A stretch of 22,461 bases of DNA, taken from the IMG/VR virus record IMGVR_UViG_2657245448_000004; one strand, written 5' to 3'. The translations under genes were made by a program, and so were the position numbers. Shown here one piece after another: positions 701 to 22,461 of this stretch (position 1 is its first letter; the number at the start of each line of letters is the position of its first letter). The DNA comes from a virus (taxonomy: Duplodnaviria; Heunggongvirae; Uroviricota; Caudoviricetes). The notes below the pieces were generated by a model, which was not told the DNA's origin, ran no database searches, and was given only the letters and a program-made list of their open reading frames with translations.

Positions 701-2002
701 TCAGATGAGGTCTGCGGTTAGCGTATCGTCGGATACGTCGTCGAAATCATTTACAGGGTTGATATTGAGTGCGGGGCGTGGGTCTGACTCGGGAACGACG
801 GTTGGTTTACCATCAGCTCGTGTTATCAGTGCCTCGACTTTTGACCAACGGCGTGGACTGGCCTTTTTGATAAGTTTTTCGGCTTTTGTGGGACTAATAA
901 GTTTAAAGTCGAATACTTCTTCAGTTTTGTACCTGAACTGGTCCTTCAGAAGTGCGCGAGCTGCCTCTTCATCACTCCAGGCCCGGTTACCTTGTTTTCC
1001 TGTTACCAGTTTAAACCCCGGTACCGGATGTCCGGCATTGAGTTCATTGTGAACCCGGTCCCGTACTGCCTTTAGCCAGGACTCAATAAAGTCGGCCTGG
1101 CTATAGATCTCCGCAAGCTGCTCAATGGTTAACAGAGGTACACGTGCGCTGGCATTGGTGATTATTTCGCTGACAGGCTTTGTCAGATCTTCAAAGTCGC
1201 TGGCCGCTGTTTGTAAATGCTGCATTTTCTGGGCAGTGCAAATAGCTTTTGCTTTACAGAAGCGGCACTGCTTTTCTCCAGGTATGAAGTTTTCCAGCGG
1301 TAGTGTCTCAATGCCTTCGCATTCAGCAATATTGAGAACAAGGATCGCACTGGTTGCGGCCTCCTGTGCTCGTTTACCGAAAGACTGAAGTTCCTGCACG
1401 GTTAACGACCATTCTGAAACGTGGTTGAGCCTTGGCTGGTGAATAAATAATCTTACAGTCTCAAAGTCATACAGCATGCTGAATTGTTCGAGAGCACCCA
1501 GAGCATACAGTTGTAGTTGCTCATTTTGTTCTGCATCAATGCGGACGCCTTTGCCATATTTCAGGTCGTGGATTTGTAATTCGCTACCAGCGATGATTAT
1601 GCCGTCGGCAGTTCCGAAAGATTCTTCCACACCCGTTATATGTGAGAAATCAACACGTTGTTCAACCAATAGTTCATTATTCTGTGCAAGAGTCCAGACC
1701 GTATCAACATACCGGCCAACGGCTTCGACCATTTCATCATCCACCTGTGGGCCAGATGTATCATCAGGATTTTCGCGAAGGGGGTATGAGCCGAGAAACA
1801 TAGAAACATTGCATCCGGCGTAGTGTTCCGGGTGGCTTTGCCTGTTTCGTAGAACTTTTTCAGCAAGCGCGTGCGCTGCAGTGCCCTCGATTGCAAAAGT
1901 TGTTTCTTTATCCGGTTGTGTGGCCTCCAGCGCCAGACTTCCTGGGCAGCGCATCCATCGATGCGCTGATGATGGAGAAAGTTGTGCATGAACGTCTGGC
2001 AT
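701..2002 (-). CDS. PD-(D/E)XK-type nuclease with Cas4-like cysteine cluster (DUF2800-like)
   Basis: 433-aa ORF. N-terminal Cys (RWMRCPGS) plus C-terminal C-x2-C-x5-C ([10 protein letters not shown]) fit a Cas4/AddB-style 4Fe-4S cluster; IHDLKYGKG and QLY resemble RecB-family nuclease motifs. Start is 3 nt from the upstream gene end. Confidence 0.65.
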
Positions 2003-2004
2003 GA

Positions 2005-2907
2005 TTAACCCTCCAGTGCTTTTTCAGCCAGGGTGATTACTTCAGCGAGATTTTCATCCGTTACTTCACCAAGTTTCCTGGCTCCCTGTTTTTCCAGAAT
2101 TGCAATAGCTTCTGCCCGGTAACCCCCTTTTGCTAACTGGAGGATCAACCCTTCAGCTTGTTTGCGTAGTGCCGCGAAATCAATTGTATGGTCATCTTTG
2201 GCGTCATTATTCTGGCTGGAATTTGCTGTGTCTCTGCGTGCAAATTCTTCCTGCAGCTGAAGGTACTCAACACGGTTGGTCTCGATATGGCCTTTTTTCA
2301 GCATCTCGTTCAACTTGCGTAAGGTGTGGAGTTCACTGGCTGCTGTGCCGGATACATTTTTGACGTAAAACGGCCCCGTGCGTTCTCCATCTTTGTTACT
2401 GGCCTTTTTCGGCTTAACTTCATCACGCCCATCCGCAGGTGCATCAAGTAGCTGCTCGGCAAAAGCACGTCGCTCGCCGATGGTTGGCAGGTCGTCCCAG
2501 AACTTAAGGATGTTACGGGACAGGTCCAGGAGAGCAGGTTTAAGCAGCGCCCTGGCTCGTTTGACGCCCTGCAATGCGCTGTCGAGAGCATCAATCTGAA
2601 CTACTCGTTTATCGCCTTCAGCATCACGGTAGGCAACAGCACGTTGCAGCATGTCTTCTGTGATAGGGGTGGCTACTGGGTAGAAACCAGCCAGTGCGAT
2701 AACGTCGCTGAACTCCAGATCATCCAGTGTCATTGCCGCTGACATATTTTCAGTTTCAGTTGCTGTATCCCGACATTCCTGCACTCGTGAAATCGTGTCA
2801 GGATGCATAACAATACCTGATGCCATTGTGCGGATAAGACGTTCAAGCAGCGCATTATGTTGTGCCAGAAGTTGATTATTAAGTTCGAGACTGGTTTCTA
2901 AACTCAT
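2005..2907 (-). CDS. hypothetical early-left operon protein (function not recognised)
   Basis: 300-aa ORF tightly packed between the small membrane ORF (ATGA overlap) and the nuclease gene. Charged, helical-looking composition; no motif I can name. Confidence 0.55.
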
Positions 2908-3074
2908 ACTGTGGTCCTCGCTACAAGGAGAATGAAAGTGATGATCAGACCGAGCGCAGTGGCAACGGCCAGACCGGTCATCAAATCGAAGTTTTTACGG
3001 CGATAACGGAGAACATCGCGCCCCGTCAGTCGATAGAGGTGTTCAGGTTTCATCGGTTGTATTCCTTTTTTCAT
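2904..3074 (-). CDS. small membrane protein (56 aa), first gene of the early-left operon
   Basis: Not in the ORF track (under 60 aa). Hand translation of the minus strand: [56 protein letters not shown], with one hydrophobic C-terminal helix. Its TGA stop overlaps the ATG of the 2005..2907 gene, suggesting translational coupling. Confidence 0.45.
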   Translation of the reverse strand: MKKGIQPMKPEHLYRLTGRDVLRYRRKNFDLMTGLAVATALGLIITFILLVARTTV

Positions 3075-3110
3075 ATCGGGGAGCGCGCTGTTGCGAGTGC
3101 GCTTTCAGAC

Positions 3111-3138
3111 ATAAAAAAGCCCGTCATTTGCGGCGGGC
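3111..3138 (-). terminator. putative intrinsic terminator (minus strand) upstream of the early-left operon
   Basis: Hairpin GCCCG...CGGGC at 3119..3138, followed on the minus strand by a 6-nt U-run (plus-strand A-run 3113..3118). Confidence 0.4.
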
Positions 3139-3277
3139 AAAGACTACACACAGCAATTACATGGATATCATCGAGTGCCTGCTTTTAACCACATCAGGCG
3201 AGGTGGTTCTCCTTGTACCCCTACAGTGAGAAATCGTCTAATATCTCTTCACCCCTACAGTTTGAGAGAGATTAGAT

Positions 3278-3847
3278 ATGTCTGAAGAAAAAGGAATTCT
3301 TTCCCGGATAACTGAATCGTTATCCGGCGTGGGAGGAGCAATTAAAGGCGCGGTTGGAGCAGCAAGAGAGATTCAGAATCTGACTGTCGACTATGCAGTT
3401 AAAGAGAAGACGCACACCTTACTCGATAAGCTAATGGATGTTCAGATGCAGCAAATGTCGCTTCAGGAGCTGCTGATTGCGGCTAAGGAGAAAATTGTTG
3501 AACTGGAAAATGAGAAAGTAAAGCAAGAGAACTGGGCCGCTGAAGCGGCGAGCTATGAACTTTACCAGCCTATGCGGGGTACTCTGGTCTATCGCAGCAA
3601 GCTTTCTGCAGATACTGACCAATCTCCGGTTTATATTTGTCCCAATTGCTACGAGCAAAAGAGAAAATCTATATTGCAAGCGGAAGGTCTGGTTATTAAG
3701 CCAGGCCTTGGGCGAGCCGTTAATATGGTTTGTTCGCACTGTAGGGCTTCCTATCTGTTCAACCGAAATGCTTTAGAGGCCAGACTGCCTGCTGAAGATG
3801 AAAATCCGGGGAAGGCAATCACGGATTACGATCCTTACAACCAGTAA
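3278..3847 (+). CDS. hypothetical protein: Gly-rich N-terminus, coiled-coil, C-terminal zinc-ribbon-like CxxC...CxxC; candidate accessory/defence gene
   Basis: 189-aa ORF with a GA-rich SD-like stretch (GAGAGAGA) just upstream of the ATG. Heptad-like charged segment around residues 40-90; CPNC at residues 121-124 and CSHC at 152-155. Opposite strand to both neighbours and convergent with the repressor gene. Confidence 0.75.
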   Translation: MSEEKGILSRITESLSGVGGAIKGAVGAAREIQNLTVDYAVKEKTHTLLDKLMDVQMQQMSLQELLIAAKEKIVELENEKVKQENWAAEAASYELYQPMRGTLVYRSKLSADTDQSPVYICPNCYEQKRKSILQAEGLVIKPGLGRAVNMVCSHCRASYLFNRNALEARLPAEDENPGKAITDYDPYNQ

Positions 3848-5038: not shown

Positions 5039-5239
5039 ATGTCCGGACTAACACCACAAGAGATGGTCAAAAGCTTGATTGATTCAGGGTATACCCAAAA
5101 CCAAATTGCCGAAATTGCAGGCGTGAAGCAGTCTTCTATTAGTCGGCTTCTCACCGGGGTTCATTCTGACCCTCGCTTTTCTACAGTACGTGCGATAGAA
5201 AAGCTTTTTCAGGAAGTGACAGCTAGACAAAAGGCGTAA
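5039..5239 (+). CDS. Cro-like HTH regulator
   Basis: 66-aa ORF with an HTH-like segment (YTQNQIAEIAGVKQSSISRLLTG), divergent from the repressor and heading the rightward operon. Confidence 0.8.
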   Translation: MSGLTPQEMVKSLIDSGYTQNQIAEIAGVKQSSISRLLTGVHSDPRFSTVRAIEKLFQEVTARQKA

Positions 5240-5242
5240 CCC

Positions 5243-7504
5243 ATGTCTGATAACAAACCATGGGGAGCTACGCCCGATGAGTGGTTCCACTTCGATCTGG
5301 TGTTGGGGATGACAGACAGGCTTTTACCTGTGGTGTCCAATCCCTGTGCAGAACTGTCGCCTAATAGCAAGCTGTCTCATAATTTCGGCAAAACCCCCAG
5401 TCGCTACAATGGCCAACGTAAGGTTGTTGGTATCCCCGACTGGGCTAACTATGTTGTTACGGAAAACGATTTTGCCCGGTGGTCGAACGAACCCGATTAC
5501 GGTATTTGCGTTCGTACTGGCGACGGGGTGGTGGCTCTGGACTGCGATATCAATGACGCCGGGATGCAGGAGATCGTACGCAATATTATCCTGTCATGCC
5601 TGGGGGAACTTCCGCCACGTCGCTGGCGGGCTGACAGTCATAAATGCCTGTACCTGATTGCTGTTGATGGCGACTACCGTAAACGTGGTCACCGCCTGGA
5701 AGGCGAAAACAAACAAATAGAGCTGCTCGCTAAGGGCCAGCAGTTTGTGGCTTGTGGTACCCATCCGGCAGGCGAACGTATTCAGTGGGACTGCGGTCTG
5801 CCCGGCGAACCTCTGAAAATTACATCTGAACAGCTCGAAAGCCTGTGGCAGCGTCTGGCGGATAACTTACCCGTGAAAGACAGCTATACCGCAGGTGCAG
5901 GACGTCAGCGTGATCTTTCCTGTGTTGATCCTTCCGCGACAGATGATGTCGCCGACTGGCTTGACGCGAACGGGTGGACTCTGTCAGTCAGCTCTGATGG
6001 TTCCCGCAATCTGAAACCGTTTCGGGATGAGTCAGAATACAGCAACGGTTGCAGCGAAACATCCATTAAGTATTTCCCAAAAGGGACGGGGGGATTTGAA
6101 CAGGGACATTTTAAAAGCATGCACAACACCGATGCGGGGCTTACTGATGCCGACTGGCTGGAAGGCTACGGCTATACGCAATCCCTGTTCGAAGATCTCA
6201 CGGTGGTTGAAGATGGCGATAAGCCTGAATTTACCGATATTAATACAGATATGACAGCTCATTTTCTGGAACGCTTTATCTACGTCATCGAGGGTGACCA
6301 GGTATGTGATCTTAGCCGACCGCCATATCAGTGCATGATGGATATGAAGTCGTTCAAAAACCTGATGGCGCCTTACCAGTTCCCGCCAGAAGGGAAAGGG
6401 CAACCAACTCCCGCAACCAAACGGTGGATAGAGCATCGGCATAAGAAGATTGCTGAGACGACAGGCTATAAGCCCGGTGCGGGACGTATTATCGAGCGTT
6501 TCGACGGGCGGTTTGAGATAAACGAATTTTATATGCCTGAGCATCCACGTACAGCGGATACAAGTAAGGTGTCCACGTTCCTTAATCATATGGCGTATCT
6601 GGTACCTGATGCCTGGCAGCGCGAGTTTTTCATCGCCCGTCTGGGGTGGATGGTTCAGCGTCCGGAGCGTCGATGCCCGATTTCTATTCTGCATGTGGCT
6701 TCCGCACATGGTACGGGCAGAGGATGGGTCAGCCAGTTAATGGAGCGCGTGCTTGGTCCGTGGAACTGTGCTCGTACTCGCATGAAGATCCTGTGCGATA
6801 ACCAGTTCCATGACTATCTGTACAATACGCTTCTATGCACCATTGACGAGGTGCGCGAAAATGATAAGCGGTATGAGGTGAACGATAAGATCCGTGACGT
6901 GCTGACAGAACCACGGTTTGAAGTGAACCGCAAATATGGCAGCAAAAAAACGATGGATATATACACCGGCTTTCTGTTCTACACCAACCACTTTGATGCG
7001 CTGGCGCTGCCAGAGGAAGACCGACGTATCGCTGTGCTGGGGGGCCCTGACTTCGCCGCAACTGAAGAGCATTACGCCAGCCTGTACGGTGCGCTAAGCG
7101 ACAGCGACTTTATCGCCCAGGTGTACTGGTATCTGATGGGCGTTGACCTGTCTCGCTTTAACTGGCAGCGCGCCCCCGAGACGAAAGAACGCCTTCTGAT
7201 GATTGAAAGCAATAAGAGCGATGTGGAGGCTGCTCTTATTGAAATCCTGGATAATCCGCCTGTGCCAGCAATGACTTATCAACAAATTGTTAACGCAATA
7301 CTGGCAGAAGCAGGAATGGATGTAGAAATTAACCAGAAGCATATTACTCGCATTTTGAAAGAAAGAACAAAGCGGGAACCCGTACGCGTAAAAATTGACG
7401 GGTTTGTATATAGGATTTGGATTCTTGTAAAAAATAACGATTTCAGCAACGAAGAATTGCGCGAAATATATAAATCTTGCGAAATTTTGCAATCTGGATT
7501 GTAA
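5243..7504 (+). CDS. replication primase-polymerase (AEP-type N-terminus) fused to a helicase/NTPase-like C-terminal domain
   Basis: 753-aa ORF starting 3 nt after the Cro stop. N-terminal AEP-like motifs: hhhDhD (VVALDCDIND) and sGxxH (ACGTHPAG). C-terminal P-loop-like segment SAHGTGRGW about 40 aa before a Walker-B-like LLCTIDEV. Confidence 0.8.
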   Translation: MSDNKPWGATPDEWFHFDLVLGMTDRLLPVVSNPCAELSPNSKLSHNFGKTPSRYNGQRKVVGIPDWANYVVTENDFARWSNEPDYGICVRTGDGVVALDCDINDAGMQEIVRNIILSCLGELPPRRWRADSHKCLYLIAVDGDYRKRGHRLEGENKQIELLAKGQQFVACGTHPAGERIQWDCGLPGEPLKITSEQLESLWQRLADNLPVKDSYTAGAGRQRDLSCVDPSATDDVADWLDANGWTLSVSSDGSRNLKPFRDESEYSNGCSETSIKYFPKGTGGFEQGHFKSMHNTDAGLTDADWLEGYGYTQSLFEDLTVVEDGDKPEFTDINTDMTAHFLERFIYVIEGDQVCDLSRPPYQCMMDMKSFKNLMAPYQFPPEGKGQPTPATKRWIEHRHKKIAETTGYKPGAGRIIERFDGRFEINEFYMPEHPRTADTSKVSTFLNHMAYLVPDAWQREFFIARLGWMVQRPERRCPISILHVASAHGTGRGWVSQLMERVLGPWNCARTRMKILCDNQFHDYLYNTLLCTIDEVRENDKRYEVNDKIRDVLTEPRFEVNRKYGSKKTMDIYTGFLFYTNHFDALALPEEDRRIAVLGGPDFAATEEHYASLYGALSDSDFIAQVYWYLMGVDLSRFNWQRAPETKERLLMIESNKSDVEAALIEILDNPPVPAMTYQQIVNAILAEAGMDVEINQKHITRILKERTKREPVRVKIDGFVYRIWILVKNNDFSNEELREIYKSCEILQSGL

Positions 7505-7770
7505 AAAGGTGACGGCTAGGTGACGGCAAAACGCTTAAGCGTCACCTTAAAAAGTATATATAAAACAATGGGAAATGTGCTAAAGGTGACAGGTGACGGC
7601 AGAATTTAAAACTATATACGCGATAGTGTGTATTTTAGGTATTATACGATCGCTTATATATAGAGAACTAAAATCAACCGTCACCTGTCACCTAAAACAT
7701 CTTCAGGCCTTATATGGCGCGCTTTGCAGCAGGTGACGGATATGTAATTACGCGTCACCTAGCCGTCACC
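7505..7770. repeat. iteron array flanking an AT-rich core; putative replication origin
   Basis: About ten copies of the core GGTGAC(G/A)G in both orientations: direct at 7507..7517, 7518..7528, 7583..7592, 7591..7601, 7731..7740; inverted at 7539..7548, 7678..7693 (two copies), 7751..7760, 7761..7770. They flank a strongly AT-rich stretch (about 7549..7677) immediately after the primase gene. Confidence 0.7.
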
Positions 7771-17495: not shown

Positions 17496-17509
17496 TTAAG
17501 GATGACCCG

Positions 17510-21172: not shown

Positions 21173-21625
21173 ATGGAATTCGAAATTAAAGGCGTGAAAT
21201 ATCGCACGGCAAAACTCAGCGTTTTTGACCAGCTGAAAGTGACCCGCAAACTTCTGCCGGTGCTGGCAGGAATGATGTCAGATTTCGGGAGTATTCGCTC
21301 CCGTTTGCCTGCTGACGGCAAAATCGACACCGTGAAATTCGAACAGTTAAAACCGGTGTTTGAAACCATGCTCCCGCGTATCGCTGAGGAACTGTCTTCC
21401 CTGACCGAAGATGACACCGATGCGATTATTCATCCCTGTCTTGCGGTGGTATCGCGGCGTCATATGGACGGATGGGTGCCGGTATTTACCCAGGGCGAAC
21501 TGATGTTTGATGATATTGACTTGCTGGTCATGCTGCAGCTGGTGGCGCGGGTGGTCGCCGATTCGCTGGGAAATTTTTTGCCTACACCCCTTACCAGCAC
21601 GACGCAGAGCCTGCAACAGGGCTGA
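21173..21625 (+). CDS. tail assembly chaperone (gpG-like)
   Basis: 150-aa ORF immediately upstream of the tape-measure gene. Carries a U-rich slippery heptamer near its 3' end, and an open -1 frame extends to the tape-measure start. Confidence 0.6.
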   Translation: MEFEIKGVKYRTAKLSVFDQLKVTRKLLPVLAGMMSDFGSIRSRLPADGKIDTVKFEQLKPVFETMLPRIAEELSSLTEDDTDAIIHPCLAVVSRRHMDGWVPVFTQGELMFDDIDLLVMLQLVARVVADSLGNFLPTPLTSTTQSLQQG

Positions 21626-21813
21626 CGTTTAACAGCCTGCCGGACGGGCTGTCCTACCTTCTCAATCCGGTTGACGCCGGGTTAATTCCTTATACAGCAC
21701 TTAAAGATGGCTCTGTCGATTTGTATGACATTGCTCTCTTGAATGACCATCTGGCGGTAAAAGCGGATAACCAGCGACGCATTGAGAAATGGAGAGAGGA
21801 TAATGAACGCTGA
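21173..21813 (+). CDS. putative chaperone frameshift-fusion product (gpGT-like) made by -1 slippage at TTTTTTG (21574..21580)
   Basis: Heptamer T_TTT_TTG lies in the zero frame (codons TTT 21575..21577, TTG 21578..21580). The -1 frame is open from 21580 to a TGA at 21811..21813 and encodes AYTPYQHDAEPATGLTFNSLPDGLSYLLNPVDAGLIPYTALKDGSVDLYDIALLNDHLAVKADNQRRIEKWREDNER. Confidence 0.5.
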
Positions 21814-22038
21814 AACTATTAAAGATTTCCTCGTCTCGCTTGGCTTCCGTGTGGATGATGCAGGAGCGAAAAAGTTCGGTTCTGTCCTCGCCGGTACAAC
21901 TGCAAATGTCATCAAAATGGGGCTGGCTGTTGAAGGGGCTGCGCTGTCCGTGGTGGCCTTCACGGCTAAGATCGCCTCCGGCCTGGATAATCTTTACTGG
22001 GCGTCACAGCGCACCGGCGCGACGGTCCAGGGAATTCA
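21803..22038 (+). CDS. tail tape-measure protein, N-terminal part (truncated by ambiguous bases)
   Basis: ATG at 21803 preceded by SD GGAGAGAGGA; the ORF track's TTG at 21782 is less likely. Product begins MNAETIKDFLVSLGFRVDDAGAKKFG and sits directly after the chaperone. The reading frame is lost at the N-run. Confidence 0.5.
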
Positions 22039-22052
22039 NTNNAGACNGCNNN
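22039..22052. other. cluster of ambiguous bases (N) next to an EcoRI site; possible assembly or cloning junction
   Basis: Seven N calls at 22039, 22041, 22042, 22047 and 22050..22052; GAATTC at 22032..22037 immediately upstream. Coding character changes across this point. Confidence 0.9.
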
Positions 22053-22460
22053 GTTGTCGTTCTGCAAACATCGAAAGCGGAAATCATTGGGAATGGCGTG
22101 GATGAGACGACGCTGACAGCAACAGTAAAAGATCCTTTTGATAACGTGGTTAAAAATCTGTCAGTAGTCTTCCGCACCTCCCCCGCAGACACGCAACTGA
22201 GTCTGAACACGCGTAATACTAATGAGAACGGTATTGCTGAAGTTACCCTTAAGGGCACGGTTTTGGGTGTTCATACAGCCGAAGCCATACTGCTTAACGG
22301 CAATAGAGATACGAAGACAGTCAATATTGCGCCCGATACCAGCAACGCGCAGGTCACCCTGAACATCCCTGCTCAACAGGTGGTGACGAATAACAGCGAC
22401 AGCGTGCAGCTGACGGCAACGGTGAAAGATCCGTCGAATCATCCGGTGGCGGGAATAACG
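22053..22460 (+). CDS. fragment encoding bacterial Ig-like (Big_1-type) repeats, invasin/intimin-like adhesin; partial at both ends
   Basis: Hand translation of the frame beginning at 22053: VVVLQTSKAEIIGNGVDETTLTATVKDPFDNVVKNLSVVFRTSPADTQLSLNTRNTNENGIAEVTLKGTVLGVHTAEAILLNGNRDTKTVNIAPDTSNAQVTLNIPAQQVVTNNSDSVQLTATVKDPSNHPVAGIT. The repeated LTATVKDP...G motif is characteristic of Big_1 repeats. No stop before the window end. Confidence 0.55.
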
Positions 22461-22461
22461 G

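Follow-up and report, generated by a model that had tools for sequence, protein, structure and literature searches.

The window, by which we mean the whole stretch of 22,461 nucleotides analysed here, contains two stretches with different matches. The first and by far the longer one coincides with the interior of an Escherichia coli prophage and stops inside the gene for the tail length tape measure protein. The second, which occupies the last few hundred bases and runs off the right end, is identical to the middle of the chromosomal adhesin gene yeeJ. The two meet at a short patch of ambiguous bases next to an EcoRI site.

The prophage side and its tape-measure gene

Positions 1-22038 of the window are 100.000% identical, with 0 mismatches and 0 gaps over 22,038 bases, to the chromosome of E. 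coli WP3-W18-ESBL-08 (NZ_AP022003.1; L003 5860-27897), where the matching stretch is the interior of a prophage of ~40 kb adjoining yfhH/tadA. The tail genes of this prophage are arranged in the order sheath (DUF3383), tube (DUF3277), tail assembly chaperone, DUF6889 and a 661-amino acid (aa) protein, followed by baseplate genes. SEN34-like (Brunovirus) myovirus prophages, such as Escherichia phage vB_EcoM-611R5 (ON470588) and the prophage located by yfhH in ST38-type chromosomes, share the order sheath (DUF3383), tube, chaperone, DUF6889 and tape measure. The prophage to which the left side is identical is thus a common Brunovirus-like (SEN34-like) one of E. coli. In a megablast comparison with the phage collection, four deposited E. 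coli phages (vB_EcoM-606R2, -689R2, -611R5 and -683R1) proved to be 100% identical to the window from position 17500, with the identity ending exactly at 22038, and no record in that collection covers the yeeJ part. No papers on phage vB_EcoM-606R2 were found in the literature.

In the reference genomes, the prophage tape-measure gene is annotated as starting with the ATG that lies at 21803 of the window. The window retains the 5' end of this gene on the plus strand (21803-22038; 78 codons and 2 nt), which is 100% identical to L003 27662-27897. The intact coding sequence in NZ_AP022003.1 encodes 661 aa, and its native continuation, from L003 27898 onward, begins GTCTATTGGCTATGCGGTTTCGCAGG. The full-length reference protein matches phrog_2276, 'tail length tape measure protein', with an E-value of 2.7e-265; its match to Pfam PhageMin_Tail (E 1.8e-4) lies under the curated cut-off. 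The gene follows Phage_TAC_15 and DUF6889, the position expected downstream of the tail assembly chaperone, and in Salmonella phage SEN34 (Brunovirus), the gene at the syntenic position bears the annotation tail length tape measure protein. A tape-measure gene starting at 21803 had been proposed from the window alone, and reference annotation, the phrog_2276 match and SEN34 synteny all bear this out, for the first 78 codons only. In contrast to the SEN34-like prophages, the window has no full-length (~660 aa) tape-measure ORF: the match ends after codon 78 of 661, so that 583 codons (88%) are lost, and the baseplate and fibre genes expected after the tape measure are missing. All related phages and prophages that we compared have an intact tape measure of 661-669 aa. 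In the assembly collection, more than 8000 blocks contain the chaperone protein, and a gene of 661-668 aa follows it in 10 of the 10 matches listed.

Several other features of this side merit mention. At its left end (position 1, corresponding to L003 5860), the window begins inside a hypothetical-protein gene of the prophage (L003 5314-5943), at a place with no restriction site and no discontinuity; in contrast to the right end, this end therefore seems to be an arbitrary cut through a longer record. Within the tail assembly chaperone gene (21173-21625; PF21822, Phage_TAC_15), the canonical -1 slippery heptamer A_AAT_TTT is present at 21571-21577 in the 0-frame. From this heptamer, the -1 frame is open for 80 codons up to a TGA at 21811-21813, spanning the DUF6889 ORF and overlapping the tape-measure start. 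The heptamer looks like the conserved programmed frameshift of the G/GT type known from tail chaperones; RefSeq/GenBank entries for the region give two separate genes or leave out the second one. Upstream of the part represented in the window, the intact reference prophage encodes a TIR domain-containing protein (L003 2378-3139) beside a DNA polymerase, an SNF2-related protein and a VRR-NUC protein. The TIR gene is a possible defence or counter-defence determinant carried by the phage. The window was scanned for Rfam families and tRNAs, and no matches were obtained.

The yeeJ fragment and the junction

The 409 nt from 22053 to 22461 recur with 100% identity inside the yeeJ gene of at least 60 complete E. 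coli genomes. In strain M7424 (L002 8001-8409), this stretch corresponds, with the codon register kept, to codons 1043-1178 of the 2660 codons of a gene annotated "inverse autotransporter adhesin-like protein YeeJ" and located between asnT and shiA. Its translation is an open frame of 136 codons with two LTATVKDP motifs, which matches the Pfam domains Big_1 (E 3.8e-25, in two stretches) and Invasin_D3 (E 7.3e-12). The original prediction of invasin/intimin-family Ig-like repeats downstream of the discontinuity is therefore upheld, and the comparison of these ~400 bp with E. coli chromosomes, which it had called for, gives the gene a name. The full reference YeeJ has an IAT_beta domain at residues 144-419 and 17 Big_1 stretches. 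The window, on its plus strand at 22039-22461, holds about one and one-third Big_1 domains, or ~5% of the gene, and lacks the start, signal peptide, LysM, beta-barrel and C-terminal lectin domain. It contains a piece of a gene and no gene in itself. The usual context, mtfA-asnT-yeeJ-shiA, is replaced here by a flank of prophage DNA.

YeeJ is a biofilm-promoting inverse autotransporter (type Ve) adhesin of E. coli with a short variant, found in MG1655, and a long variant, found in UMN026, which carries an extra 906-bp fragment missing from MG1655 (Martinez-Gil et al. 2017, PMC5595812). The yeeJ gene of K-12 MG1655 matches the window piece over only 83 nt at 95% and 52 nt at 94%. The piece falls in the part of the gene that only the long variant has. 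Since K-12 has no such segment, the source is a long-variant (UMN026-type) yeeJ, with which the piece shares 100% of its nucleotides, including the Big_1/Invasin_D3 repeats, and no cloning host of the K-12 type. A second match of the piece lies in the same gene, 609 nt downstream (L002 8610-9018, 89.7% identity). This offset appears to reflect near-identical tandem Big_1 repeat units of ~609 nt (two domains each), and repeats of this type could be the basis of the long and short length variants of yeeJ.

Around the junction, the window reads ...CGACGGTCCAGGGAATTCANTNNAGACNGCNNNGTTGTCG.... The EcoRI site GAATTC at 22032-22037 is followed by the only ambiguous bases in the entire 22.5 kb, exactly seven Ns confined to the 14 bases 22039-22052 (at 22039, 22041, 22042, 22047, 22050, 22051 and 22052), and these coincide with the switch from one sequence to the other. 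Base-by-base comparison allows the breakpoint to be placed within a few nucleotides. Identity with the phage ends at 22038, where the A agrees with the phage and yeeJ has G; positions 22039-22043 (N T N N A) fit phage and yeeJ alike; and from 22044 on, the window is yeeJ. Identity with yeeJ thus starts at 22039-22044, and the breakpoint lies between 22038|22039 and 22043|22044, with no meaningful homology between phage and yeeJ at this place. The called bases within 22039-22052 match yeeJ in register at 7 of 7 positions and the phage continuation, GTCTATTGGCTATG, at 2 of 7; the patch therefore belongs to the yeeJ-derived sequence and represents its first 14 bases, poorly called. We also asked whether the Ns could be the consensus of a mixed template, with phage and yeeJ signals superimposed, and set this aside because the pattern is uninformative: all 7 Ns fall at positions where the two differ, yet 12 of the 14 positions differ anyway, so that the chance of such a coincidence is C(12,7)/C(14,7) = 0.23, and the 5 remaining differing positions are cleanly called as yeeJ.

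The EcoRI site is native to the phage tape-measure gene. In 16 of 16 IMG/VR prophage contigs, as in the intact prophage, the EcoRI-containing sequence GGGAATTCAG recurs, and the site therefore belongs to the phage sequence; all 16 IMG/VR contigs with the 59-mer ending GAATTCA run on into tape-measure sequence. The window has 9 EcoRI sites where 7.0 +/- 2.7 are expected, so that it is the location of this site that is notable, its existence being within expectation. For a random breakpoint, the probability of falling no more than 7 nt 3' of any of the 9 sites is ~0.003, and adjacency to an EcoRI site has a chance of ~0.003-0.007. On the other side, the yeeJ gene of M7424 (L002) contains no GAATTC anywhere and no AATT at the breakpoint. 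Of what the original prediction had noted here, the seven Ns within 14 bp after GAATTC and the discontinuity at the N cluster were both recovered, with the identity switching from phage to yeeJ at 22038/22039-22044. For the EcoRI site as a mark of the discontinuity, a refinement applies: it does adjoin the breakpoint, but it is native to the phage and has no counterpart in yeeJ at or near that point.

The joined sequence does not make a protein of two parts. The codon register of yeeJ is +1 relative to the tape-measure frame, and the latter halts at a TGA at 22103-22105, after ~23 unrelated or ambiguous codons; consequently, no fusion protein is encoded. The joined product encodes nothing functional, because the tape measure loses 583 of 661 codons and because the yeeJ piece, read in another frame, has neither a start nor a signal peptide nor a beta-barrel.

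Interpretation of the join

We searched for the join in 5426 complete genomes of E. coli, 16 prophage contigs from IMG/VR, another 10 assemblies and three collections of contigs. When a junction-spanning query (21600-22461) was compared with the complete genomes, 3051 of them matched one half or the other, and 0 of 5426 had both halves at a single place. Taken separately, the two partners are common: the tail-gene segment 20700-22038 is present to 80% or more in 309 of these genomes, and the yeeJ piece reaches the same level in 1278. A pattern search for the junction, with the N patch left free, returned 0 matches in the IMG/VR viral contigs, GTDB (one genome per species) and JGI metagenome contigs.

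Among the matches listed, none of the genomes has both halves at 100%. Those listed with a 100% phage half have one matching place each and hence no yeeJ piece, and the 60 listed with a 100% yeeJ piece are other strains; some genomes in which the prophage is 99.3-99.8% identical have additional matching places (2-3). In NZ_AP022003.1 (ST38-type), the yeeJ locus is a remnant adjoining the yersiniabactin island at asnT, in which only nt 276-607, 5206-5681 and 5965-7598 of the gene are kept. The part present in the window is deleted there, so the halves do not co-occur in the best-matching genomes. This decayed yeeJ (L023 2623-5430, i.e. NZ_AP022003.1 2032623-2035430) consists of a 750-nt beta-domain ORF and a frameshifted Ig-like pseudogene. 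Given that the genomes with the identical prophage have no such yeeJ part, either the source strain, combining the prophage with a long intact yeeJ, is not represented among the complete genomes, or two different DNAs supplied the halves. Neither alternative favours a natural junction.

We conclude, with a probability of about 0.9, that the join between prophage and yeeJ is an artefact of cloning, read merging or assembly and that the last 423 bases are foreign to the preceding 22 kb. A technical origin is indicated because the only ambiguous calls of the window lie on the breakpoint, an EcoRI site is adjacent, the product is senseless and the join is unique. Read in this way, the feature is an artefact and no biological entity. 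A chimeric or low-quality join of phage and host DNA had been the favoured reading of the original prediction as well, and it gains support from the identification of the partners as prophage and chromosomal yeeJ, from their being out of frame and from a join seen nowhere else among the sequences examined. The sequences show directly what the two halves are, where they meet, that their frames disagree and that the join is absent from the other sequences examined; the technical cause itself is something we infer. Specifically, prophage sequence ending one base past its native EcoRI site would have been joined to an internal yeeJ piece during cloning, read merging or assembly, and the N patch would be the badly read beginning of the yeeJ-derived sequence at the join. 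A foreign tail of 423 bases at the window end would fit a single chimeric Sanger-type read that extended the end of a contig.

More tentatively, EcoRI-based cloning may have been involved, since the phage side ends at an EcoRI site. Chimeric clones and reads, and contig-end misjoins of older records, likewise display an abrupt switch between non-adjacent loci, a breakpoint without homology, a burst of ambiguous calls and a cloning-enzyme site on one side. The join differs from a textbook ligation of two EcoRI fragments in that the yeeJ partner has no EcoRI site. With neither GAATTC in that gene nor AATT at the breakpoint, a simple ligation of this kind cannot explain the join.

The principal alternative to a technical chimera is that the junction is real and arose in the source strain through a chromosomal rearrangement, by illegitimate recombination or by an inversion or deletion with ends in the tape-measure gene and yeeJ, the Ns being a coincidental local problem of sequencing. 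Both sequences are E. coli chromosomal DNA, some genomes hold the prophage together with more than one matching place and, in NZ_AP022003.1, the two loci are ~0.67 Mb apart on opposite strands, such that an inversion could unite them on one strand. Nevertheless, we consider such a rearrangement very unlikely: the junction was found in 0 of the 5426 complete genomes and 0 times in the three contig collections, the partners share no homology at the breakpoint, and a rearrangement gives no reason for Ns precisely on the junction or for the adjacent EcoRI site. If the junction were real, both the prophage tail module and the adhesin would be inactivated.

The reading that had already been ranked as less likely from the window alone, an unusual tape measure or other tail gene with Ig-like (Big_1) domains acquired from a host adhesin, is very hard to sustain. 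Ig-like domains are known on phage structural proteins, and the fragment matches a PHROG family, phrog_7803 (E 4.3e-43). However, the Big_1 frame is +1 to a tape-measure frame that stops at 22103-22105, the fragment agrees in 100% of its nucleotides with the middle of a chromosomal gene of 2660 aa, and every related phage compared keeps an intact tape measure of 661-669 aa. An Ig-like fusion that is conserved in relatives, whether in frame or through a programmed frameshift, is absent from all the related prophages and phages examined. Tape-measure proteins have an established role in tail building, and a phage short of 88% of this protein would build no tail. We accordingly reject this reading.

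Finally, clone libraries are known to yield chimeras with host DNA as an artefact, and the yeeJ piece could in principle be contaminating DNA of an E. coli K-12 cloning host, but this can be dismissed with near certainty given that MG1655 yeeJ offers just the two short imperfect matches (83 nt and 52 nt) described above.

Implications for annotation and phage collections

This finding is of value for data hygiene: annotation of the prophage should leave out the last 423 bases of the window, and neither the truncated tape-measure ORF nor the "Ig-like" ORF should be taken for a novel tail protein or a phage-borne adhesin cargo. The problem extends beyond this record. DNA of the host adhesin seems to have found its way into phage collections, probably as prophage flanks near serU/asnT, and such fragments can therefore seed false "phage Ig-domain protein" annotations. 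In the IMG/VR "viral" contig IMGVR_UViG_3300039330_000034, positions 1-2299 (L005 1-2299) are 100% identical to nt 1211-3509 of yeeJ, and phrog_7803, a family of unknown function with 1642 positions, matches the YeeJ repeats.
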